NCBI GenBank assembly: GCA_003978765.1
Contig: QNYO01000025.1
Span: 7,303 to 71,302, forward strand
DNA length: 64,000 nucleotides
Source of the DNA: Hydrogenimonas sp.
GTDB taxonomy: Bacteria > Campylobacterota > Campylobacteria > Campylobacterales > Hydrogenimonadaceae
Reading direction: 5' to 3'
The first letter of the stretch is position 1; each line of letters begins with the position of its first letter. This document shows, piece by piece, positions 49,549-60,714 of the stretch. The notes beneath the pieces were generated by a model. It was not told the origin of the DNA. It searched no databases and was given only the letters and a program-made list of their open reading frames with translations. The position numbers were made by a program, and so were the translations under genes.

Positions 49549-50616
49549 TCACCCTCTTCCCAATATCATATCAAAATTATCAACCTTTGTTGAACTCTTA
49601 TGAAGTCGTTCACATACATCACAATCCCAACACTCAAATTTACAATTTTTAATATAAGTATTCCATTTCTCAAACATCTTCTCTTCATAACCAAACTTTT
49701 TGACAATATCATATAATGGTTTAAAAACTACATCCTCACCATCTGCATAGCGTTTTACAATCTCCATTGACTGTTTCATAAGTCCAAAATCACTTCTTCC
49801 ATGAAGTTTAAAAATCTGAATATAGTTTAAGAGTTCCTCCATATCTTTTCGATATATTGGCATATTGGCATTTTGCAAGTGATACCATGGAATCTGTTGA
49901 TGCCATGCTGGACATGTTTTCATACCAAGTTCCGTTTTGAAATAGTTTATCGCCGTATCTTTAGAGTTTGAGTTATTATAATGGTAGTGTTCACTCATGG
50001 CAGGACATAACCCCTTACACCACTCATTAGCAAGAAGAATCATTGGGATATTGTATCTTTCATAAGCCTTCTTTAATCGTTTTAAGTTATCCAAATCTCT
50101 TAAATTATACCGATCAATATTGATTGCATCAAAACCAACTTTTGCATAATCAACATACTCTTGTGGTCTTGAAACTCTTTTTAAGACAGTATTTTTAATT
50201 GTCATCTCTGGAAACTCTTTTTTAAGAAGACCATTGAGCATCCAGCTATAATGAGGAATGGTAATCGATCGAAGTCCTCGTTTATAGAGTGGTTTCAACT
50301 TTTCTATAAATACATAGAGATTTTGAATTGTTGGTTCTACTAGTGTATTATTAAATGTAGCAGAAACTTTAATCCCATATTTTTCTTGAATCTGAAGCAT
50401 TACTGAAATAACTCGTCGATTCTGTGCTTCAACACCCTCTTTTGCAAGAACAGCAATATTAGCACAACCCATTGCATCATTCACAAAAGGAGGCATAATA
50501 TAGGCAAAATAGATATCATAAATATAGGAGTGATACTGCTTAATAAAAGGAAGAAACTCTTTATAAAAAAAAGTTTTATCCATCTGTGTAAAGAAAGGAA
50601 GTGAGAAAATTTTCAT
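49549..50616 (-). CDS. Cys-rich peptidase U32-like (putative Fe-S) protein, last gene of the cas operon
   Basis: LLANEWCKGLCP, TCP, FKLHGR and C-terminal CKFECWDCDVC; RBS AAGGA; 21 nt after the csm5 stop; low GC. Confidence 0.6.
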   Translation of the reverse strand: MKIFSLPFFTQMDKTFFYKEFLPFIKQYHSYIYDIYFAYIMPPFVNDAMGCANIAVLAKEGVEAQNRRVISVMLQIQEKYGIKVSATFNNTLVEPTIQNLYVFIEKLKPLYKRGLRSITIPHYSWMLNGLLKKEFPEMTIKNTVLKRVSRPQEYVDYAKVGFDAINIDRYNLRDLDNLKRLKKAYERYNIPMILLANEWCKGLCPAMSEHYHYNNSNSKDTAINYFKTELGMKTCPAWHQQIPWYHLQNANMPIYRKDMEELLNYIQIFKLHGRSDFGLMKQSMEIVKRYADGEDVVFKPLYDIVKKFGYEEKMFEKWNTYIKNCKFECWDCDVCERLHKSSTKVDNFDMILGRG

Positions 50617-50637: not shown

Positions 50638-51951
50638 TTATATATGCTTACTTTTAGCAAAAACTTCGTGATATTCATCCCTACCAATCCGCTCACAAAG
50701 GAGCCATCCAAAAGGGAGCATTTGGTTTTCACTCTCCTCTTTGTCAGAGAAGAACCAGCTGGTGGTCTCTTCGGTAAGGTAACACTTAATAGCAAGGCGT
50801 TTGATCGTTTTTGCTGTCTCTTCAAGCTCTGATGGTTTTTTCATGAAGTGATAGCTTTGAAGTTGTGTACGCAACTCTTTGGGATTTAGGAGCTTCTCAT
50901 CTGTCATCAAACGCTCAACAGTCTCATGATTCTCAAAGTAACTCTTCTTATAAAGCCGTTCAATTTTGGCTTCAATCTGCTCAAATGCACTATCACTTTT
51001 ATGTTTGAGATCGCAAAGTGTCACCATAATGGCACGCAGTCCCTCAATCGTCACAGAGCGTGCCCCACTATAGCGTCCGACACGAACAATAAAACGGTTC
51101 TTATCAAGCTTTAATGAAGCGATCTTCTGTTTAAATGTTTCACTCACATAGCGTGGTGTCATCTCCTGATGCGAAAAGAGTGAGGCTAAGATAGGAAGGT
51201 AGTGTTCATTGCAAGCATCGGCAATTGTCTCAAACTCTCGTAAAAGGCGTGGTTCAAAAGATTTTAACTCCAAACGTCCAACAAAGAGTGTCTCTGGCAT
51301 CATCGCTTCAACCCGTATCGAGGGTCCATGTCCCCCCTCTTCAAAACGCTCTTTGTTGAGTGCATAGCCAATCTTTGTATCCGATTGGATGGGGTGAAGA
51401 TCTGAAAGGAGAAGATTTTTCATAGGGCTAAGTGTAGGGTTACGCAACTCTTTAAAGTGTTGTCTCCATGCAGAAAAATCTTTTTGATACAACATACTCT
51501 GATAAGCGGTTGAGATCGCTCCTTTGAGACTACTACCTGAGATATAGGGCATCTTAAGATTCGTAAGCCGTTGGGTACGCATCATTTGAAACTGTTTAAA
51601 CCCCCTCTCTTTATGCTCTCGGTCATACGCTTTATAATCTCCAATTTTGGTTTCATACTCCTTGACAATCCCTTCGGAGACAGGAACAACATGGTGAGCA
51701 AGTGAGATAGCAATATCGTGGTGTGCCTGAATAAAAGCGTGAAGACGGATAAAGATGCCTGGGTCGGCTTGAGCAACTAAGTCGTTGAAGATATGGCGTT
51801 TTTGCTCATCAAGTTCACGGTAAAAGGCAAAAGGGTCAAACTCATAGAGGTGGTGGTTATGAATAATAAAGTTGGTTGGCTCATAATACTCACCTGTTCC
51901 AATATGGACAGGTGAAAGAAGCCTTACTTTTAGATAGTAGCTCTCTTTCAT
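50638..51951 (-). CDS. csm5: Type III-A CRISPR RAMP Csm5
   Basis: LSPVHIGTG, PYISGSSLKGAI, RVGRYSG, LPFGW. Confidence 0.92.
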   Translation of the reverse strand: MKESYYLKVRLLSPVHIGTGEYYEPTNFIIHNHHLYEFDPFAFYRELDEQKRHIFNDLVAQADPGIFIRLHAFIQAHHDIAISLAHHVVPVSEGIVKEYETKIGDYKAYDREHKERGFKQFQMMRTQRLTNLKMPYISGSSLKGAISTAYQSMLYQKDFSAWRQHFKELRNPTLSPMKNLLLSDLHPIQSDTKIGYALNKERFEEGGHGPSIRVEAMMPETLFVGRLELKSFEPRLLREFETIADACNEHYLPILASLFSHQEMTPRYVSETFKQKIASLKLDKNRFIVRVGRYSGARSVTIEGLRAIMVTLCDLKHKSDSAFEQIEAKIERLYKKSYFENHETVERLMTDEKLLNPKELRTQLQSYHFMKKPSELEETAKTIKRLAIKCYLTEETTSWFFSDKEESENQMLPFGWLLCERIGRDEYHEVFAKSKHI

Positions 51952-52835
51952 GCCTCAATACCCCCTATGGCTGTTACAATCGCATACCCTTGATGAACCG
52001 TATCGGGATAAGCAGGAGAGATGCCACGAACACCTCGTCCAATATAGGAGAGATTCATCACCTCATCCATTCTCACAACTGCTCCACACCCTGCCATCAA
52101 CAGTGGGTGTTTAAATGGGTTTTGATAGGCTCTTAATGCCCCATGCTTTCCAAAATGAACCGATAGCTCATACCAATATTGCTGACACTTTACCCCCTCT
52201 AAGACAGAGGCTGAAAGGGTCATAAAGTACTCCCCTGTTTGATGTAACTCTGCCCTTTGCAGAGGCTCCACACAAAATCGCCCTTTCCCAGTCGTGCTAT
52301 CTTTACCATAGCCATAGACTCCAACAAATGCCAAGACCTCTTCAAGTTCGTGCCGACTCAATCGTGACTCATCAACCAAAAAGTAGATCTCTTTGTCACT
52401 CAGTTGGTAGTTTGTTACGTTGTAAGAAGCAAACCGATCACCATCCATACGGAAGTTTCGATAGTCAAGATGATGATGAGCTTGAACAAAATTGCGGTCA
52501 CGATACCCCACCTCATCATCACTCTTTGCTTCATGATACGCACCTTTAACAAGGGCTTCTGGTTGCATCCAAACCTTTTTGGCATCTTCTCGTCTCTTTA
52601 AAGGGGAGAGTCCAAGCATGCGTGGTGGAAGGGTTGGTTTAGGTAAAAAACCTGGAGCAAAAGGGTCACTGACCACCATAAATGGCTCAGATTCATACCC
52701 CTCTAAAAGCTCTTTCAGACGCGCTTCACCATACTGAAAGAGAATCCCCCAACAGAGCTGTCCAAAGAGTGTGTCACCACGCAATGGTGTTGCAAAGGGG
52801 GATTCTGGAATGAGTCTGGTTTTATAGAGTTGCAT
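51948..52835 (-). CDS. csm4: Type III-A CRISPR RAMP Csm4
   Basis: GDTLFGQLCW, SDPF, GYGKDSTTGKGRF. Confidence 0.92.
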   Translation of the reverse strand: MQLYKTRLIPESPFATPLRGDTLFGQLCWGILFQYGEARLKELLEGYESEPFMVVSDPFAPGFLPKPTLPPRMLGLSPLKRREDAKKVWMQPEALVKGAYHEAKSDDEVGYRDRNFVQAHHHLDYRNFRMDGDRFASYNVTNYQLSDKEIYFLVDESRLSRHELEEVLAFVGVYGYGKDSTTGKGRFCVEPLQRAELHQTGEYFMTLSASVLEGVKCQQYWYELSVHFGKHGALRAYQNPFKHPLLMAGCGAVVRMDEVMNLSYIGRGVRGISPAYPDTVHQGYAIVTAIGGIEA

Positions 52836-52838
52836 ACC

Positions 52839-53519
52839 CTACTCACTCAAATGGAACTTAACACGTCCATAACCGCGTGAGCCATTCCCTCCAAGGTAAT
52901 CCTCTTCAACCAAATGCAATCCAAGCTTCACCATATTCAAAAGCTTATCTTCATCATCCAACCCATCAAAGACTTTAATACGAATATCAAGATTGAAAGA
53001 GACACCAGCAGGTACACGCTCAACTTGTCGGGGGTTTTGTGCTGTTCCCTTTTTACGATCAACCATATTCTCATACTTCGCTTCACTTAAGACCATATGC
53101 TTTGAGCTTTCACTGAGCAGACAATCCCCCACACTAATACGGGTCATACCATAGGGGCTATCTGGTGTTGGATCACCAAAAAGCTTCAAAAGTGTCTCTG
53201 CCTCTTCACGCTTTTTTGGATCGATCATAAAGATCTCTTCACGATTCAAGAATTTTCGAGAAAAGGGTTGCCCCTCTTCATAGGGATACTTTCGCCCCAT
53301 ACGCACCAACCCCAAATGCCACTCTAAGAGTGTACGCATCTTTCCTTTGAGTGAACTGCCTGGAATATAGGGCTCATAGATCCCCTTTTTATTCGGGTTA
53401 ACATGACGAATAACACTATTATCGATTCCACCTATCCGCATCGTGTCATCCCCCCGACCGATATGCAATCCTGTCAGCAGTTCGATCTCTCCTTTTACTT
53501 TTCTAATCTTTAGCATCAA
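52839..53519 (-). CDS. csm3: Type III-A CRISPR backbone RNase Csm3
   Basis: TGLHIG, IGGIDNSVIR (catalytic Asp), PYIPGSSLKGK.R, PRQVERVPAG, YLGGNGSRGYG. Confidence 0.95.
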   Translation of the reverse strand: MMLKIRKVKGEIELLTGLHIGRGDDTMRIGGIDNSVIRHVNPNKKGIYEPYIPGSSLKGKMRTLLEWHLGLVRMGRKYPYEEGQPFSRKFLNREEIFMIDPKKREEAETLLKLFGDPTPDSPYGMTRISVGDCLLSESSKHMVLSEAKYENMVDRKKGTAQNPRQVERVPAGVSFNLDIRIKVFDGLDDEDKLLNMVKLGLHLVEEDYLGGNGSRGYGRVKFHLSE

Positions 53520-53905
53520 TCTCTCCCTTTATAAAATCCAAGAACCGCTTCAAAAAAGAGTTTAAAAATTTTGAGTTTCTCAGGAGAATCAACCTGTGCA
53601 ATACACTGTGCCATCATCTCAGCGAAACGGCAATTGAGCACTTCACGTGTTACCCCATAGGCCACTTTAGAGTTCAACATCTTTACAAATGGTTCAATCT
53701 CATCCCACGGTTGTGTCTCACGTGCATCATAATATTTTAAGATTTGGTCATAAAAACTGCGTACCTGTGCCTTCTTTGTTCTCTTATAACGCTCTCTTCC
53801 ATACTCATCTTGGCACTTATCCCCTTCAATCAAAGAAGCCCAATATTTGGCTGTTTCATTAAAGAGTTCAGGATCGACTCTATAGTCAAGAATAATCTTC
53901 TCCAT
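53516..53905 (-). CDS. csm2: Type III-A small subunit Csm2
   Basis: QVR.FY, KVAY, FFEAVLGFY; located between cas10 and csm3. Confidence 0.9.
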   Translation of the reverse strand: MEKIILDYRVDPELFNETAKYWASLIEGDKCQDEYGRERYKRTKKAQVRSFYDQILKYYDARETQPWDEIEPFVKMLNSKVAYGVTREVLNCRFAEMMAQCIAQVDSPEKLKIFKLFFEAVLGFYKGRD

Positions 53906-53909
53906 CCAC

Positions 53910-55511
53910 CTATCTCCTTTGGTAAATAAACTCACTCAAAATCATTTTACACGCTTCAGGTGACGCTTCAATCCACTGATTCAACATATTTAAAAGCTCT
54001 TGTGCCCAAATATTCTGTTCCTCATCACTCTCTTGAAGATATTCAAAGATATTACGCTGAAAGAGATAGTTAAGGCGTGAACGCCACATTGCCCCTTCAA
54101 GAAGATGATCAGGATCTTTCATACTTTGACGCAATACAACAATATTAAAGAGTTGTTCAATGAAATGCATCGATAACCCTGTTAAACGCTTCTGTGCAGT
54201 ATCAAGGGCTTGATAGAGTGCTTTGGCTTCACGATAGGTTTTCCATGCCACTGTTTCACCAAAAAGGGTGATGGCAGATTTGCCTTGAAAGGCTTTCGAG
54301 GCTTCAAGTGCAGCGTTACACGACTGAACAAGATACTCCATAGGTGTGGAAGGGTTGGCAATCACAATCCCCATAGAGAGTGAGAGTCTATCGTATGTAA
54401 AGCGTCTAAACGCCTCTTCAATCTGCTGTGCCAAATCTATAATCTGATCCCACGCTCCTATGAGAAAAAAGTGACCAGCCTCTGCGAAGAGTATCGAGGT
54501 ATTAGGATAGCTTTGGTACATGAGGTGTGATAGATCCTGCTTGAAAAACTGGTCAAGTGATGCCATAAAGCTATGGAGATGTTCAAAAGAGGCTTTTAAA
54601 TGGTTCTGCTCTAAAAAGATCTCCAGATTATCAATATCTCCCTTTAAGAGTCCCAACGCTTTAAGCCCATGATCATTGGTTGGAGAACTCCGCTCTGCCA
54701 GATCGTTCAATGATGCGATCTCTTCTCTCTCATTAGTCGTACAATAAGTGATCTGCGAGAGATCCATCAACGCAATGGCATCTGAACGATCATCAAAGGC
54801 GATACCATAGCCATCAAAAAAGTCTATCTCTCCATCATTACGTACCAGTGCTACACTCTTGTTTTCTACCAGTGACTCACCAAGCTTCATCCACTGTTGA
54901 CATAGATCACAGATAGCCTCTCTCTTCCCTTGACGAAGGTTACAGATTGGACAAAGATTCTGATGATCGATATCTTCATCATACGCTAAGAGTGCCTGTT
55001 GGTTGGGAAGATCAAACTTTTGATACCATGCCTGCTCTATACGTCCTCTCATCTCTTCTTGAAATTCTCGATAAGCTACTCGATCCTGCCAGATAGCTGA
55101 CGTACAACTCATCCAGACAAGACTCAATCCACCCAAACCATAGAAGTGATTCAAACAGAAGCTATTGAAACTTTGACGAAGCTCCTCTAAAGTTTGGTAA
55201 TCGATTGTAGGAGAGAGAATCTCAAATCCTCTACTCGAACATGAGAGAATAGCATCTGGTGAGAGACCAAGCTGATCACAGATGCGATAGGCTGATAGGT
55301 GCATAAAGAGCTCGATATAGACTGACTTTGCCTGTAATATCTGATGGGCATGTTGGGTTGAGACTCCTCTAAAAAGAAAGCTCTCCAGACCAAAAAAGTG
55401 ACCAGAGATGAGTAGATAATCGTCTGAATCATCACATGGGGGTACCTTCTTTTGAAAGATCGGTATGAAGTCACCAAATGTTGTAGAAAATGTCTCTTCA
55501 AACCGACTCAT
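53910..55511 (-). CDS. cas10: Cas10/Csm1, HD-less with degenerate Palm active site
   Basis: Palm1 LISGHFFG, zinc finger CPIC..CDLC, KGDIDNL, FAEAGHFFLIGAW in place of FAGGDDLFLIGAW; only 533 aa. Confidence 0.88.
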   Translation of the reverse strand: MSRFEETFSTTFGDFIPIFQKKVPPCDDSDDYLLISGHFFGLESFLFRGVSTQHAHQILQAKSVYIELFMHLSAYRICDQLGLSPDAILSCSSRGFEILSPTIDYQTLEELRQSFNSFCLNHFYGLGGLSLVWMSCTSAIWQDRVAYREFQEEMRGRIEQAWYQKFDLPNQQALLAYDEDIDHQNLCPICNLRQGKREAICDLCQQWMKLGESLVENKSVALVRNDGEIDFFDGYGIAFDDRSDAIALMDLSQITYCTTNEREEIASLNDLAERSSPTNDHGLKALGLLKGDIDNLEIFLEQNHLKASFEHLHSFMASLDQFFKQDLSHLMYQSYPNTSILFAEAGHFFLIGAWDQIIDLAQQIEEAFRRFTYDRLSLSMGIVIANPSTPMEYLVQSCNAALEASKAFQGKSAITLFGETVAWKTYREAKALYQALDTAQKRLTGLSMHFIEQLFNIVVLRQSMKDPDHLLEGAMWRSRLNYLFQRNIFEYLQESDEEQNIWAQELLNMLNQWIEASPEACKMILSEFIYQRR

Positions 55512-56350
55512 TGATACTCCTTAAGCGGTGTCAGCCTATAATCTCCCAGTCCAAAAACTGTCTGCTTGCCTGCCCCAATCACTTCACCTATCTTCAAATA
55601 ACCGTATGATCGCTCATCCAAACCCCGAATCACCACACTTCCTATCACCCCTCCTAATTTCATACGACACTTCTGCCGATTGGAGTAGCGATAGAGATCA
55701 AGATAGTGAAGATCACTCTTCTCTATCTCACCTTCAATGCGGTATCCAAGCTTTTGTGAAGGCAACCCTTTAAGGGCACGATAGCGATGGTGAATCGTCG
55801 TAATAAGTGTTGGTAGTGAAGGGGTATGATAGATGAGATGATTATTCATCTTCATACGGAGTGGCATACGAAACTCCAACCGTACATCACGATAACACTC
55901 CTCGACAGAAGTCGAGCATGGTTGCACCCGATCTATTGGAAGAAATCTCTCTCCATCATAGACAAGATGTACTCCAACATGAATATTGGCTACCTTCACC
56001 TTTTGTTGATCTTTTCCCAATCCCGTCTCTTCAAGTGACTTTTTCATCGCTGAGAGAATATAGGGCATCTGTGCAACCCGATCTTCAAAGAGATAGATAG
56101 AAAAAGCCAGATGCTTCATACCCAGTGCCGAGACAATACGATAAGGGTGGTAGAGGTTCACTTTTTCAAAAAAGTCGTAATAGAGACATGTTGCAGTGGC
56201 AAAACATCCACTGCATTGATATGAGGGGTTGATACAGACCATCCGTTTCAATGTCACGCCCAATGCCCCACGCAACATCGAACCTGAAAAGAAGGGTGGT
56301 TGATACGCTGTAACTGCCTCAATATCTATTTTTATCCATGTAATTTTCAT
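55508..56350 (-). CDS. cas6: CRISPR pre-crRNA endoribonuclease Cas6
   Basis: GSMLRGALG, Cys cluster CINP...C..C.....C.Y, RYSNRQ, G-rich loop GAGKQTVFGLG. Confidence 0.92.
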   Translation of the reverse strand: MKITWIKIDIEAVTAYQPPFFSGSMLRGALGVTLKRMVCINPSYQCSGCFATATCLYYDFFEKVNLYHPYRIVSALGMKHLAFSIYLFEDRVAQMPYILSAMKKSLEETGLGKDQQKVKVANIHVGVHLVYDGERFLPIDRVQPCSTSVEECYRDVRLEFRMPLRMKMNNHLIYHTPSLPTLITTIHHRYRALKGLPSQKLGYRIEGEIEKSDLHYLDLYRYSNRQKCRMKLGGVIGSVVIRGLDERSYGYLKIGEVIGAGKQTVFGLGDYRLTPLKEYQ

Positions 56351-56488
56351 TAAAACCTAAAAACAATAATTTAAAACTATTATACAACTAAAATCCTTTT
56401 ATAAAGTTTTGATCTATTTCAAATAACACAAATATATGATGGTAGTGATAATATTTTGTGATAGGAGATAGAGAGAGTGAAGGGGCTT

Positions 56489-56512
56489 AAAGCGACAGAC
56501 ACGATGTCGCCT
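56489..56512 (-). terminator. Putative terminator downstream of the mini-array
   Basis: Minus strand GCGACA-tcgtgtc-TGTCGC followed by TTT. Confidence 0.5.
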
Positions 56513-56539
56513 ATTGCCTCTTCCAATTGATACTGATAG

Positions 56540-56642
56540 AGAGAAATCCCCTTAAAACCGGGTCTAATTATTCAATATCAAACATAAATGAGACGACTTA
56601 TAGATGTCTCAATCCCCTTGAAAACGGGTCGAATCTATATCA
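56540..56642 (-). CRISPR. CRISPR mini-array: two degenerate repeats and one ~29-nt spacer
   Basis: AATCCCCTTAAAACCGGGTC (56545-56564) and AATCCCCTTGAAAACGGGTC (56611-56630) are 18/20 identical and 66 nt apart; CCC/GGG hairpin core; the minus-strand repeat ends ATTGAGAC (8-nt handle-like); adjacent to cas6. Confidence 0.75.
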
Positions 56643-56719
56643 TCAGCTTTCATGAATGATCTACTTTAACAAGTTAAAACTAATTCTACTCTTAAAGTTG
56701 GTATTTCAATCTTTTATCA

Positions 56720-59059
56720 TTAAATAATTGCATCTTGTGTTAACATTTCACACAACTGCTTAACCTCCTTTTTATTGAGAATACTCTCAATATTGGATGT
56801 TGCTCTCAATGTTTTCATCACAGTTAGATCCTCTTCAACCGAGATGACAATGACGGGCGTTTTAATCCCCTCATCCTCCATATATTGTAAAACCTCTGCA
56901 CAGATCCCATCGCTCAAATAGAAATCCAAAATCACCAAATCAAAGCTTTCAACTGTTAACAACTTCTTAGCACCATTATTGGAGTCGGTAAAAGTGAGTC
57001 GAAACTTATCTTGCAGATACTCTTCAAAAATTTCACGAGAGTTTTGGCTATCTTCCACAATCAAAATATGTTTTGCCGTTTCGGGTGCTTTAAAGAGTGA
57101 GTAGGAGTTGGATGGTGGATCAATGGTAGGGATTGTCAGATGGAAGCAACTCCCCTTTCCTGCTTCACTCTCCACCCAGATACGACCTCGATGAAGCTCT
57201 TCAACAATCTTTTTACAGATCATCAACCCAAGTCCACTGCCTGCTTCACTCTTTTGGTAAACATTTTCGATCTGAACAAATGGCTGAAAGAGTTTAAGCT
57301 GATCCTCTTTAGAGATTCCGATTCCTGTATCACAGATAGAGAAGTGGTAAGAGTTGCTATCCTCTTCATAATAGACATGTAAAGAGACCTCACCACCTTT
57401 GGGGGTAAATTTAATGGCATTACTCATTAAGTTAAGCAAAACTTGCTTTAAAAGCATGGGATCAACCACCATGGTCATCGATTGATCAACCTTTAAGTTG
57501 AGTTGGATATCCTTTTGATTTGCTAATGGACGTGTAAGCGTTTCAACCTCTTTAATAATTGTCTTGACATCACTCAAAGTTGGATTAAAACGCATTTTAC
57601 CCGCTTCAAGTTTCGCAAAATCCAAAATAGTATTGACAAGATTGAGAAGATTGTTGCCCGCAATATTGATCTTCTCAATATAGGCCTTAATATGCTCAGG
57701 CGTATCTGGACGCATCATAAGGATTTGGGAAAATCCATTGATAGCATTGAGAGGTGTTCGCAACTCATGGGACATATTGGCCAAAAAGACATCTTTGGCG
57801 CGATTGGCACTCTCTGCTTTATCGGCAAACTCCATCAATGACTGTTCACGCTCTTTAATAGAGAAATTCAGTTCAAGTGCTTCAAGGAGTAGAATCAAAA
57901 TCTCTTCAAGATAGAGTTTATTGACCAAAGGTTTGAGTTGAATGCCCAAATAGAAGCTATACTGTTTGTATTGAATATGTTTGGTAATATCAAAAGTGTT
58001 ACCATCCAATGGCTCTGTTTGCACAACAATCTCTTCAATCGCCCATGGCATCACCGACTTAAGACTCTCTTTAACACGTGCCATCACATTTTTCTGAATA
58101 TCATACTCTGAAATTAAGATCAAATCGCGTTGAGAAAAGATTGTATGGATTGCACGGATCGCTTTCAATCCTGCATGTAACGAAAGAAAACCGCTGGTCG
58201 AAAACTCTTTAAGGGGACGATCCATCAACTCATAGAGTTGATTGGTTACTCGCGTCAATGCATCAAAATGGTCACGTATTTTCTGTTTATTCCCCTCTTC
58301 AACCATACGTTTAAAGGCTGTAAGTTCGTGATGCCATGCCATATGGAGTGATTTAAGCTCTTCAATATCGATACCTAATGTTTTAAGACGCTCTAATTGA
58401 TCACTCAAACGCTCTAATAGTTGGTGAAACTTACACTCGAATGGATCTTCAATTATTGTACTGAGTTGTTGGGTTGTATGATCGGGATGCTTCATATAGG
58501 CTTCAATCAAAGAGTAGTTCTCTTTATGAATGGCAAAAGCACTATAGACCTCATCAATAATCTCGATAGATGAGAGTTGACGCATACGATCCGATGATTG
58601 GTAGTAGGCATGGTAGGTACTATCAATAATGATATACTCCACCATTGCAAAAAATTTGCTAATCATCTCATAGTGGTGTTTAATCACTGGATCAACCAGT
58701 GACATTTTATAAAGAAGACGATTCAGTGCCCAAAAGCCATAGGTCACTTTACCACTCTCCAGTCGTATGCCAGCATGAATTGCACCAACCTTTTGTATCC
58801 GGCTCAAATAGGCTTGATCAATAGGCGCTGAAAAGATAAAGATGATAAACTCTTGCATCGTTTTTAGCAGACGATCGATATCGGTATGTCGAAAATAGCG
58901 TACCATCTGCTCATCATCTTTGAGATACTCATGATAGAACTTCTCAATCAAAATTGAGCTCATAACTGAAAGCTTATCATGAAGTGCCTCTCGTGCCTCA
59001 ATATCCTCTGCGGTAATATGGAACTGTCGAAGTAGATTCTCAATCGTCAACTGGTGCAT
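56720..59059 (-). CDS. Globin-coupled hybrid histidine kinase (protoglobin-CZB-HisKA-HATPase-REC)
   Basis: Globin FY..., VG.IH proximal His; CZB-like H, ECKF, H..WH; ANMSHELRTPLN, DTGIG, GSGLGL; C-terminal REC. Confidence 0.88.
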   Translation of the reverse strand: MHQLTIENLLRQFHITAEDIEAREALHDKLSVMSSILIEKFYHEYLKDDEQMVRYFRHTDIDRLLKTMQEFIIFIFSAPIDQAYLSRIQKVGAIHAGIRLESGKVTYGFWALNRLLYKMSLVDPVIKHHYEMISKFFAMVEYIIIDSTYHAYYQSSDRMRQLSSIEIIDEVYSAFAIHKENYSLIEAYMKHPDHTTQQLSTIIEDPFECKFHQLLERLSDQLERLKTLGIDIEELKSLHMAWHHELTAFKRMVEEGNKQKIRDHFDALTRVTNQLYELMDRPLKEFSTSGFLSLHAGLKAIRAIHTIFSQRDLILISEYDIQKNVMARVKESLKSVMPWAIEEIVVQTEPLDGNTFDITKHIQYKQYSFYLGIQLKPLVNKLYLEEILILLLEALELNFSIKEREQSLMEFADKAESANRAKDVFLANMSHELRTPLNAINGFSQILMMRPDTPEHIKAYIEKINIAGNNLLNLVNTILDFAKLEAGKMRFNPTLSDVKTIIKEVETLTRPLANQKDIQLNLKVDQSMTMVVDPMLLKQVLLNLMSNAIKFTPKGGEVSLHVYYEEDSNSYHFSICDTGIGISKEDQLKLFQPFVQIENVYQKSEAGSGLGLMICKKIVEELHRGRIWVESEAGKGSCFHLTIPTIDPPSNSYSLFKAPETAKHILIVEDSQNSREIFEEYLQDKFRLTFTDSNNGAKKLLTVESFDLVILDFYLSDGICAEVLQYMEDEGIKTPVIVISVEEDLTVMKTLRATSNIESILNKKEVKQLCEMLTQDAII

Positions 59060-60101
59060 TGTCGATGCTTCCTAATAGATTGGTTTTGTTAAAGACTTTA
59101 ATGGAATTAAAGCCTTCATTGGTAATCTCACCAATACTGGTAATACCAAAAATGGGCTGCATGCCCGATGTTTCAGCGGCAATCGCCTCAATCTCTTGAA
59201 TAAAGTCATCTCCCATATAAAGCACCCTTGAGATACAGTCAAAGAGGAGATGAATATGGTTGGGATGAGGGGTAAGTGTGAGCCGTGCATTATCCACAGC
59301 CGCCTCAATCAAACCAGCATGATCACCCTTCATAATATAGACGGTCTCATTGGTTGCAATCGATGAGACCATTAAGAGTGCCTGTTCATCGGTTGGTTGA
59401 AGTGGATCACGGACAATAAACTCATTTTGAGTATAAGAGAGAATTCCAAAGGGGTAAGCTTTTGCCACATCAAAAAAGTTCTCAGATGTAATCTCCTGAC
59501 CATCAAGATCACGCAACACCTTCGCATAGACTTCAAAAGCGGGTTCATTGTTGAGTTCATAGATAATATTATCTTTCGATTTCGTTACAACCAAAGGGCC
59601 ATAGAGTGGCTTCCATCCATGCTTAACCCCCACATGAATGGGTGCTTCAATCTCGACAATGAGTGAGTGACACTGATAACTCTGCTCTTGATCAAAAATT
59701 GATGGCATCGGTGTTAAACTTTTTCCCCCTACCCCAGAACCAAAGAGAGTTTGTGTCGTTAAGAGAGTACCAAACTGCTCCAAAAAGGGTTCAAAAGAGC
59801 TATTGAAAAGATCACTAAACATCATTAAGGTCGTATTGGCTCTCAATGACACCTCAGGTGGCCTCTTCATATCCAACAGATAGAAGTTAACATGATCACG
59901 TTCATCAAAACGGATCTCTAAAATCCCCTCATGATAGAGTTGGTTATTGGCAATAATATGGGGAACAATAGCACCATAAAAAGGTTGTTCTACCTCTTGA
60001 CATAACTGTGCAATATCGACCGTTTCAGTAACCAGATAGAGACGTGGATCGCTCTTTGATCGCGTAATCTCATTAGGAGAATGGTAGTAGGTAATCTTCA
60101 T
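59040..60101 (-). CDS. FIST domain sensor protein
   Basis: HGWKP, IYELNNEPAF.VY, YPFG, DCISR, SIGEI, FNKT. Confidence 0.88.
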   Translation of the reverse strand: MKITYYHSPNEITRSKSDPRLYLVTETVDIAQLCQEVEQPFYGAIVPHIIANNQLYHEGILEIRFDERDHVNFYLLDMKRPPEVSLRANTTLMMFSDLFNSSFEPFLEQFGTLLTTQTLFGSGVGGKSLTPMPSIFDQEQSYQCHSLIVEIEAPIHVGVKHGWKPLYGPLVVTKSKDNIIYELNNEPAFEVYAKVLRDLDGQEITSENFFDVAKAYPFGILSYTQNEFIVRDPLQPTDEQALLMVSSIATNETVYIMKGDHAGLIEAAVDNARLTLTPHPNHIHLLFDCISRVLYMGDDFIQEIEAIAAETSGMQPIFGITSIGEITNEGFNSIKVFNKTNLLGSIDNAPVDD

Positions 60102-60466
60102 TAATGGCTCTCAATCCATGGTATAAGTTTTTGTTGTAATATCGTTGCGGAAAGGGGTTTGGAGATATAGTCATCAAATCCGTGCATCAAAATCTTCTCT
60201 CGATCACCCTCCACTGCCAATGCCGTCACGGCAATAATTGGCCCCTTATAGTGCCGTTCATTACGCAATTTATCATACAACATAAACCCATCAATGGTCT
60301 GCATATCAATATCCGTCAAAACCAAGTCAAACTCAAAAGGCTCCAACTGAAGGGCTTCTACAGCAGAGGCTAAGACAGTGAGTGTGACATGAGGAAACTG
60401 CAGTTTAATCATATCGTGCAAAACGATCTGATTAAACTCATCATCTTCAATAATAAGAATATGCAT
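60101..60466 (-). CDS. Single-domain response regulator (DivK-like)
   Basis: ILIIEDD, LTDIDM, IAVTALA..GDRE, YISKP; start after AAGGAG. Confidence 0.9.
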   Translation of the reverse strand: MHILIIEDDEFNQIVLHDMIKLQFPHVTLTVLASAVEALQLEPFEFDLVLTDIDMQTIDGFMLYDKLRNERHYKGPIIAVTALAVEGDREKILMHGFDDYISKPLSATILQQKLIPWIESH

Positions 60467-60714
60467 TAAAATACTCTCCTTTCCCCTCCATCGAAAAAAA
60501 AATAGAATTTTATTGATTATAGCAGATGATTCTATAACAATCATAGTGTGTATGCAATCTTTTTGCAATCATCTACGATAGAGTTGCATGGATAAGAAGC
60601 TCTAACGATACCAACCCTATAAAAATTCAATAAATCAGCTTCTATCAAGCAGACCAAAGTATGCTATGATAAAACTCTTTTTCCACCACACGACCCACAC
60701 ATCTAAGGATAGAA

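Follow-up and report, generated by a model that had tools for sequence, protein, structure and literature searches.

Among the closest described relatives of the element considered here are miniature CRISPR arrays that lie beside cas genes. As far as its available text goes, the CreR preprint (10.1101/2023.03.10.532045) describes autorepression by degenerated mini-CRISPRs of types I-B, I-E and V-A, and in the accounts at hand the CreR and CreA RNAs guide DNA-binding effectors to promoters. In CreTA, where a crRNA-like antitoxin is coupled with an RNA toxin, a pseudo-spacer is paired with the promoter of an adjacent small toxin gene. For type III systems, the survey PMC10120712 places mini-arrays near 10-16% of loci (10% of III-A loci); in the portion of the survey that is available, these units comprise two repeat-like elements with a single spacer, located at the margin of a type III cas operon, have neither targets nor conserved positions and are judged to be probably degraded. 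The words 'type III' and 'Cas10' are absent from the accessible texts of both the CreR preprint and the phage crlRNA preprint (10.1101/2024.10.29.618823), and a literature search for a type III autoregulatory CRISPR RNA (crRNA) found none. The subject of this study is a 64,000-nucleotide (nt) stretch of DNA from Hydrogenimonas sp. (assembly GCA_003978765.1, contig QNYO01000025.1, positions 7,303 to 71,302 of the forward strand; hereafter the window), in which a single-spacer CRISPR array lies upstream of a type III-A-like csm operon encoding a doubly reduced Cas10, and in which the spacer is partly complementary to the mRNA of that same cas10.

The array has three parts, all read on the minus strand:

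56606-56640, minus strand: repeat 1, an intact copy of 35 nt whose 8-nt tag, ATTGAGAC, occupies 56606-56613
56575-56605, minus strand: the single spacer (guide), 31 nt
56540-56574, minus strand: repeat 2, terminal and degenerate, with the CCC/GGG hairpin kept and the tag lost

There is little doubt that this is a genuine CRISPR array and that it belongs to the adjacent operon. Two direct repeats surround one unique spacer of typical length, and a repeat search aligned their cores at 21/24 identical positions, with a 66-nt spacing. The last 8 nt of repeat 2 have diverged and read GGGGATTTCTCTC. Comparison with 21 other genomes of the genus Hydrogenimonas identified Cas6 homologues of 56-58% identity in four of them, and two of these four have full arrays (29 repeats or more in G003, 10 in G006) with a 35-nt repeat and spacings of 67-74. 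Repeat 1 is homologous to this repeat, the element GACCCG-loop-GGGGATTGAGAC being common to it and to these bona fide arrays, and in G006 the terminal repeat shows the kind of tag loss seen in repeat 2. A first-pass annotation had already described a two-repeat, one-spacer unit on the minus strand, with a CCC/GGG hairpin in both repeats, a decayed 3' end in repeat 2 and the 8-nt handle in repeat 1 alone; repeat identity and homology to the congeners bear this out, together with its deduction that the unit can yield exactly one guide, because the tag is kept only in repeat 1. The spacer, given there as 29 nt, is lengthened to 31 nt because the repeat bounds are now set by homology to the 35-nt repeats of the congeners.

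The repeat is otherwise solitary. The 25-nt core of repeat 1 has a single occurrence in the window at up to three mismatches (0/100 shuffles) and one in the whole assembly, which is a metagenome bin of 1.61 Mb in 94 contigs, 80% complete; neither a further copy of the repeat nor a full array of the same repeat family was found in this bin, and the exact core had no match in the genome-contig collection. Rfam returned a sub-threshold match to CRISPR-DR8, scoring 17.8 bits where the gathering score is 39, with an E of 0.56.

The unit had been called stand-alone, without mention of the csm operon beside it. Since the cas6-csm5 operon adjoins the array, with cas6 beginning 190 nt downstream, that description cannot be kept. 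The array occupies part of a 369-nt gap between a histidine kinase gene and cas6, and the operon that follows consists of:

55508-56350, minus strand: cas6, 280 amino acids (aa); Pfam CRISPR_Cas6, E 4.8e-12
53910-55511, minus strand: cas10/csm1, 533 aa; TIGR02578, 268 bits (cut-off 170)
53516-53935, minus strand: csm2, by profile match
52839-53519, minus strand: csm3 (Cas7), by profile match
51948-52835, minus strand: csm4; TIGR01903, E 2.2e-23
50638-51951, minus strand: csm5-like gene, 437 aa; TIGR01899, E 4.2e-12

The operon is uninterrupted from cas6 to csm5, its six cas frames are open and full length, and the matches to TIGR01870, TIGR02582, TIGR01903 and TIGR01899 all exceed their cut-offs. 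The gene set is that of type III-A (Cas10/Csm1 with Csm2, Csm3, Csm4, Csm5 and Cas6), and the RAMP and Cas6 matches in the assembly are only those of this operon. The gene order (cas6-cas10/csm1-csm2-csm3-csm4-csm5), the short C/G repeat stem followed by an 8-nt tag that forms the 5' handle, and the homology of the repeat to full arrays of two Hydrogenimonas genomes all agree with type III-A arrays. The locus differs from them in having a single spacer and no cas1 or cas2 of its own, the only cas1 and cas2 found in the assembly lying on another contig (C90) beside a different repeat family. It also differs in layout. In G003 and G006 the order is cas6-cas10-csm2-5-cas1-cas2-leader-array, which puts the array after cas1-cas2, at the distal end, whereas here it stands upstream of cas6. 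No mini-array was found within 700 nt upstream of cas6 in the three congener loci with sequence there, the fourth having 10 nt only, and a search of genome contigs with Cas6 returned no related locus.

A further departure from type III-A concerns Cas10, which lacks both of its catalytic features. The protein covers only positions 218-753 of the Csm1 profile, and because the match begins at position 218 of 753 the HD domain, and with it the nuclease of a type III-A Cas10, is absent; the HD-bearing Cas10 of a congener has approximately 215 additional N-terminal residues in the alignment. The GGDD cyclase motif is likewise missing and is replaced by EAGH (within FAEAGHFF). GGDD is present in 16/16 homologues from genomes and in 33/35 from databases, and the sole other exception among those 35 is the nearest relative, P0003 (67% identity, 531 aa), which has GDRA and is known from metagenome sources only. 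Both proteins also carry LRAKS to LQAKS and DNMG to DxLE changes in conserved palm motifs, the latter replacing the Gly of DxDNMG with Glu. As these further derived changes are common to the two, loss of GGDD probably predates the split of their lineages, and both frames are still open despite that loss. A search of metagenome and genome contigs with an alignment of Cas10 and P0003 found no related locus.

Reduced Cas10 proteins are not in themselves unusual. Homologues at E <= 1e-20 occur in 29 of 401 genomes, many of them short, and HD-less forms of 502-524 aa are common within the same class. Loci L017, L018, L020, L022, L023, L024, L026 and L029, from one genus of the same order, encode HD-less Cas10 of 502-505 aa with GGDD kept; their short arrays precede cas6, at the upstream edge of the locus, and have repeats that are related to the present one but run opposite to the cas genes. 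Cyclase-motif loss has precedents in other type III subtypes, the forms with inactivated cyclase being III-C and III-F. The locus thus resembles reduced-Cas10 type III variants in having an HD-less Cas10 of about 500-530 aa, and differs from them in that HD and GGDD are both missing in a Csm-type operon.

The remaining effector genes point to a complex that has probably kept one activity. Csm3 retains the Asp in its GGIDNSV segment, whose aligned counterparts in solved Csm3 chains are GAIDSPV and GAIASPV-type segments; we take this Asp to be the catalytic residue for cleavage of target RNA. No known cyclic-oligoadenylate effector is present in the locus. Because HD and GGDD are absent while the Csm3 Asp is retained, the Csm complex can probably only bind and cut RNA, with neither DNA cleavage nor cyclic-oligoadenylate signalling. 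Sequence divergence is uneven across the operon: identities to G001, another congener, are 57% for Cas6, 54% for Csm2, 59% for Csm3 and 46% for Csm4, and 31% for Cas10 and 28% for Csm5, where the corresponding values for G001 against G003 are 63, 69, 67, 50, 58 and 49%. Cas10 and Csm5 have accordingly diverged out of proportion to Cas6 and Csm2-4, the Csm5-like protein being 26-28% identical to those of the congeners. This last protein also has a match to YokU-like (zinc-ribbon) at residues 294-356, with an E of 8.6e-4 and below the cut-off.

What such a complex might be directed to was sought with the spacer itself. When the whole assembly was scanned on both strands without gaps, the highest-scoring non-self match was a 23/31 site in cas10 codons 149-159, oriented so that the guide pairs with the cas10 mRNA:

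55035-55065, minus strand: candidate target site in the cas10 mRNA, complementary to the guide at 23/31 positions

Within the operon, chance is unlikely to produce a match of this quality to its own cas10 mRNA. Against the 6.9 kb of operon mRNA, 23/31 or better was reached by 1/3000 and 8/20000 shuffled spacers in two runs and by 18/20000 random genomic 31-mers. It was reached by none of the 26 spacers of the genome's other arrays (maxima 17-20) and by none of the 37 spacers of two congeners' type III arrays, which scored 16-20 on their own operons and 17-21 on this one. RNAduplex placed its best site in the operon at the same position, at -25.7 kcal/mol against -20.2 +/- 1.9, with 3/400 shuffles as good. 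There is no pairing between the tag and the site's 3' flank. Outside cas10, the best spacer matches in the window are 18-20/31, and the intergenic region 56351-56720 has no match above background. In this the locus differs from CreR, whose complementarity is to the promoter of the cas operon; the sole notable match here lies inside a coding region. The same interval shows no match of the CreTA kind either, although no search aimed at a toxin RNA was made. The possibility that the spacer was copied from a cas10 orthologue was considered and rejected: no congener cas10 locus reached 20/31, and a perfect protospacer at this site would carry an in-frame TAA, so that a functional orthologue cannot be the source.

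In other respects the unit is comparable with CreR. In both cases a mini-CRISPR with a degenerated repeat (here repeat 2) lies beside cas genes, 190 nt upstream of cas6 in the present case. The spacer of CreR is only partly complementary to its own locus, which would allow the effector to act on itself, and the 23/31 match to cas10 may be a counterpart of this. The differences are that repeat 1 is not degenerate and that, in place of a DNA-binding effector at a promoter as in the accounts of CreR and CreA available, there is an RNA-targeting type III complex with a candidate site in a coding region.

Searches for a foreign origin of the spacer were negative. No match with up to three mismatches was found in the 21 congener genomes, there was no exact 31-nt match in the viral, genome or metagenome contig collections, and blastn gave nothing significant, the best E being 6 for phages and 5 for plasmids. 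The first-pass annotation had likened the unit to CreA/CreR-type regulatory elements, a reading that would fall if the spacer varied between strains and matched phage. Neither was observed, the spacer being the same in each of three strain variants. The variants correspond to three assemblies, all from one study and not independent, and the runs carrying the stretch are hydrothermal vent metagenomes of that study. The X1 contig (8880 nt) covers all of 55400-57400 and differs there by 7 substitutions, free of any indel or joint, and the X3 contig, from a second sample, has the same arrangement from 56487 upward with 28 differences in 914 nt. The 233-nt intergenic region has 11 variable sites in total:

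56505, 56511 and 56515: stem-loop region downstream of repeat 2
56558 and 56565: repeat 2
56637: repeat 1 (position 4)
56657, 56660, 56661, 56697 and 56705: leader

The variant at 56505 preserves a stem pair as G-U, and one variant has the changes at both 56697 and 56705, which fall within the stretch of the promoter-like boxes. There are no variable sites in the 68 nt of 56569-56636, which hold the spacer and the core of repeat 1; hand arithmetic puts the chance of this at approximately 0.02 if 11 sites were uniformly placed. The spacer is identical in the three assemblies that cover the array, and the repeat-1 core (56606-56634) is likewise invariant. Because all three assemblies come from one study, this invariance gives weak support for constraint. 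The type III mini-arrays of PMC10120712, as described in the part of that survey available, sit near a full array and lack targets and conserved positions; here there is no full array of the same repeat family in the assembly, the guide is invariant in three variants and a candidate target lies in cas10.

The sequences flanking the array contain possible, though weak, signals for its transcription:

56683-56709, minus strand: promoter-like boxes TTGAAA (56709-56704) and TAGAAT (56688-56683), 15 nt apart, read by eye in the 80-nt leader
56665-56678, no strand assigned: palindrome TTTAAC-nn-GTTAAA, 14 nt, after the -10-like box and before repeat 1
56492-56510, minus strand: stem-loop GCGACA-7 nt-TGTCGC (56510-56505 and 56497-56492) followed by TTTAAG, a weak terminator candidate

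The boxes, the palindrome and the GCGACA/TGTCGC stem are all present as first described, but the claim that the unit has its own promoter and terminator has to be softened, for these are weak consensus matches. A promoter scan did not call the boxes because their 15-nt spacing falls outside 16-18, and a terminator scan called none because only three T follow the stem. The region contains two promoter-like sites against 3.3 +/- 1.5 in shuffles, and comparison by eye with the leaders of two congeners revealed no convincing conserved motif. Folding is similarly modest: the stem-loop has an energy of -11.2 kcal/mol, equalled in 6/200 shuffles, the repeat hairpins alone are not more stable than shuffles (29/200 for repeat 1 and 146/200 for repeat 2), and the fold of the 201-nt unit (z = -1.94, with 7/200 shuffles as good) was treated as not significant. 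In the predicted minus-strand fold the 5' part of repeat 1 (GAUGAUAUAGAU, 56635-56646) pairs with the first 14 nt of the spacer (56592-56605), which would enclose the repeat 1 hairpin within a longer stem.

Transcripts could also enter the array from upstream. The neighbouring gene on that side is:

56720-59059, minus strand: hybrid histidine kinase (protoglobin-HisKA-HATPase-receiver)

Its stop codon is only 80 nt before repeat 1, so that read-through into the array is possible. The kinase, which has a protoglobin sensor, belongs to an operon at 56720-60568 on the minus strand together with a receiver protein and a FIST-domain protein. None of the runs listed is on record as RNA. Two bear a metatranscriptomic label together with a 'probably DNA' flag, and one of them yields a 3594-nt contig that starts at 56487, just past the stem-loop, and extends through the kinase gene, with cas6 uncovered. 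As contigs cannot show transcript ends and the data come from a single study, nothing is inferred from this about expression.

Beyond the operon on its other side lies one more frame, followed by radA and ftsY on the opposite strand:

49549-50616, minus strand: frame after csm5, 355 aa, with no family assigned

This frame has no Pfam or NCBIfam match at E <= 0.01 and a Cys-rich C-terminus, and tblastn found no homologue in four congener loci. Its neighbours in a protein atlas are peptidase U32-like clusters, mostly viral and including some methyltransferase fusions (feature score 0.96; structure TM 0.86-0.88). Elsewhere in the genome there is further CRISPR content. Contig C90 (3.1 kb) carries cas4-like, cas2 and cas1 genes, then a leader and a multi-spacer array with a 29-nt repeat ending ATTTGAAAC, and an array of the same 29-nt repeat is found at the start of contig C36, where the terminal repeat is degenerate. 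A type I Cas5 is encoded on contig C21, and the content of these three contigs is counted as a second CRISPR system. No DevR-type Cas7 was found in the assembly, which is 80% complete. A third repeat family, of 36 nt, starting GTTTTAATACCCC and with spacers of about 30 nt, occupies bases 1-330 of contig C92, at the contig end.

Collectively these results can be accommodated in the following scheme, which is argued from sequence. Transcription of the minus strand would begin at the weak leader promoter or reach the array by read-through out of the kinase operon upstream, and Cas6 would cut the transcript at the base of both CCC/GGG hairpins. The product would be a crRNA consisting of the tag AUUGAGAC and then the 31-nt spacer, with a trimmed 3' end, and it would be loaded into the Csm complex whose Cas10 has neither HD nor GGDD. 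The loaded complex would bind complementary RNA and cut it through Csm3, with no cleavage of DNA and no cyclic oligoadenylate, and its best candidate target would be the operon's own cas10 mRNA at 55035-55065. One outcome could be negative feedback on the operon, making the unit a type III analogue of CreR; another could be that a dead Cas10 lets the cell tolerate a self-targeting guide. The guide is thus possibly self-directed, in the manner of CreR, rather than antiviral. We tentatively favour the view that this is a working single-guide array for a Csm complex limited to binding and cutting RNA, with its own cas10 mRNA as the best candidate target, while giving it somewhat less than an even chance.

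A good deal weighs against this view. Searched genome-wide, 8/40 shuffled spacers reach 23/31 somewhere, and a 24/31 chance match is found in 210 kb of unrelated AT-rich loci. When G-U pairs are allowed the site scores 25/31, which 205/3000 shuffles also reach. The eight mismatches fall at guide positions 1, 8, 12, 19, 21, 23, 24 and 29, of which 12 and 24 would be flipped-out positions in a type III duplex, and the Cas10 residues encoded at the site differ in P0003. To these must be added the dependence of the three strain variants on a single study, the failure of the scans to call either promoter or terminator, and the negative assessment of type III mini-arrays in the available text of PMC10120712.

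The same figures on genome-wide and wobble matching lend substance to an alternative that is doubtful but must be taken seriously, namely that the spacer is the last surviving one of an immune array. On this account the array is genuine and supplies a crRNA to Csm, the guide is a memory of an unsampled phage or plasmid transcript, and the match to cas10 is coincidental. The anatomy is that of a normal array at its minimum, in which a good repeat on the leader side is followed by a degenerate terminal one. Where habitats are poorly sampled, as with a hydrothermal vent metagenome, spacers often go without a database match. With no cas1 or cas2 of its own, the locus would add no spacers, and invariance between strains would therefore be expected. 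Set against this account are the operon-wide statistics (1/3000 and 8/20000 shuffles, and 0/63 real control spacers, at 23/31) and the lack of an exact match among viral, genome or metagenome contigs and of a significant blastn hit among phages or plasmids. Moreover, defence by a complex with one guide and neither HD nor GGDD would be feeble, and still the Cas10 reading frame is open after 33% of protein divergence.

A more ambitious form of self-targeting would make this the first crRNA-like autoregulator of type III, in which a conserved single guide sends a Csm complex, dead in signalling and in DNA cleavage, to the coding region of its own cas10 for post-transcriptional feedback, and in which the catalytic sites were lost because recognition of self would otherwise be autoimmune. 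This full version is unlikely.

Less probable again is that the locus is an inert relic, a decayed array in a decaying type III locus that is no longer transcribed, processed or used. The judgement in PMC10120712, so far as its text is available, that type III mini-arrays are probably degraded and non-functional would fit this, as would the loss of both Cas10 catalytic features, the divergence of Cas10 and Csm5 (31% and 28% identity to G001, the other proteins being at 46-59%, where G001 and G003 share 58% and 49%), the drift of repeat 2 among the variants and the weakness of the promoter and terminator. Counting against decay are six full-length open cas frames, a retained Csm3 Asp whose catalytic role is presumed, and a repeat 1 core that keeps its exact tag and is invariant together with the spacer while the 11 variable sites lie in the flanks. 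The cyclase-dead Cas10 in a full-length relative of 67% identity also argues for retention after the loss. Finally, collapse of a longer array to one spacer during assembly or binning, which an 80% complete bin of 94 contigs with its other arrays at contig ends might suggest, is very improbable, since the independent X1 contig spans the array without insertion, deletion or joint, the X3 contig from a second sample has the same arrangement, the repeat has no other copy in the assembly, and repeat 2 is unlike repeat 1, which would not be so if copies of a single repeat had been merged.

For the DNA-binding effectors of types I-B, I-E and V-A, crRNA-like RNAs that regulate their own system have been demonstrated, and the survey PMC10120712, in the portion available, found none in type III. 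The Hydrogenimonas locus unites an invariant single guide, a doubly stripped Cas10 that has remained open in two lineages and a match to cas10 that is better than chance within the operon. Should the match prove coincidental, the locus would still serve as a clear-cut natural case of a Csm system confined to RNA binding and cleavage. As it stands, it offers a concrete and inexpensive test case for two questions: whether cells also turn type III complexes on their own RNA, and whether the loss of Cas10 catalysis accompanies self-targeting.

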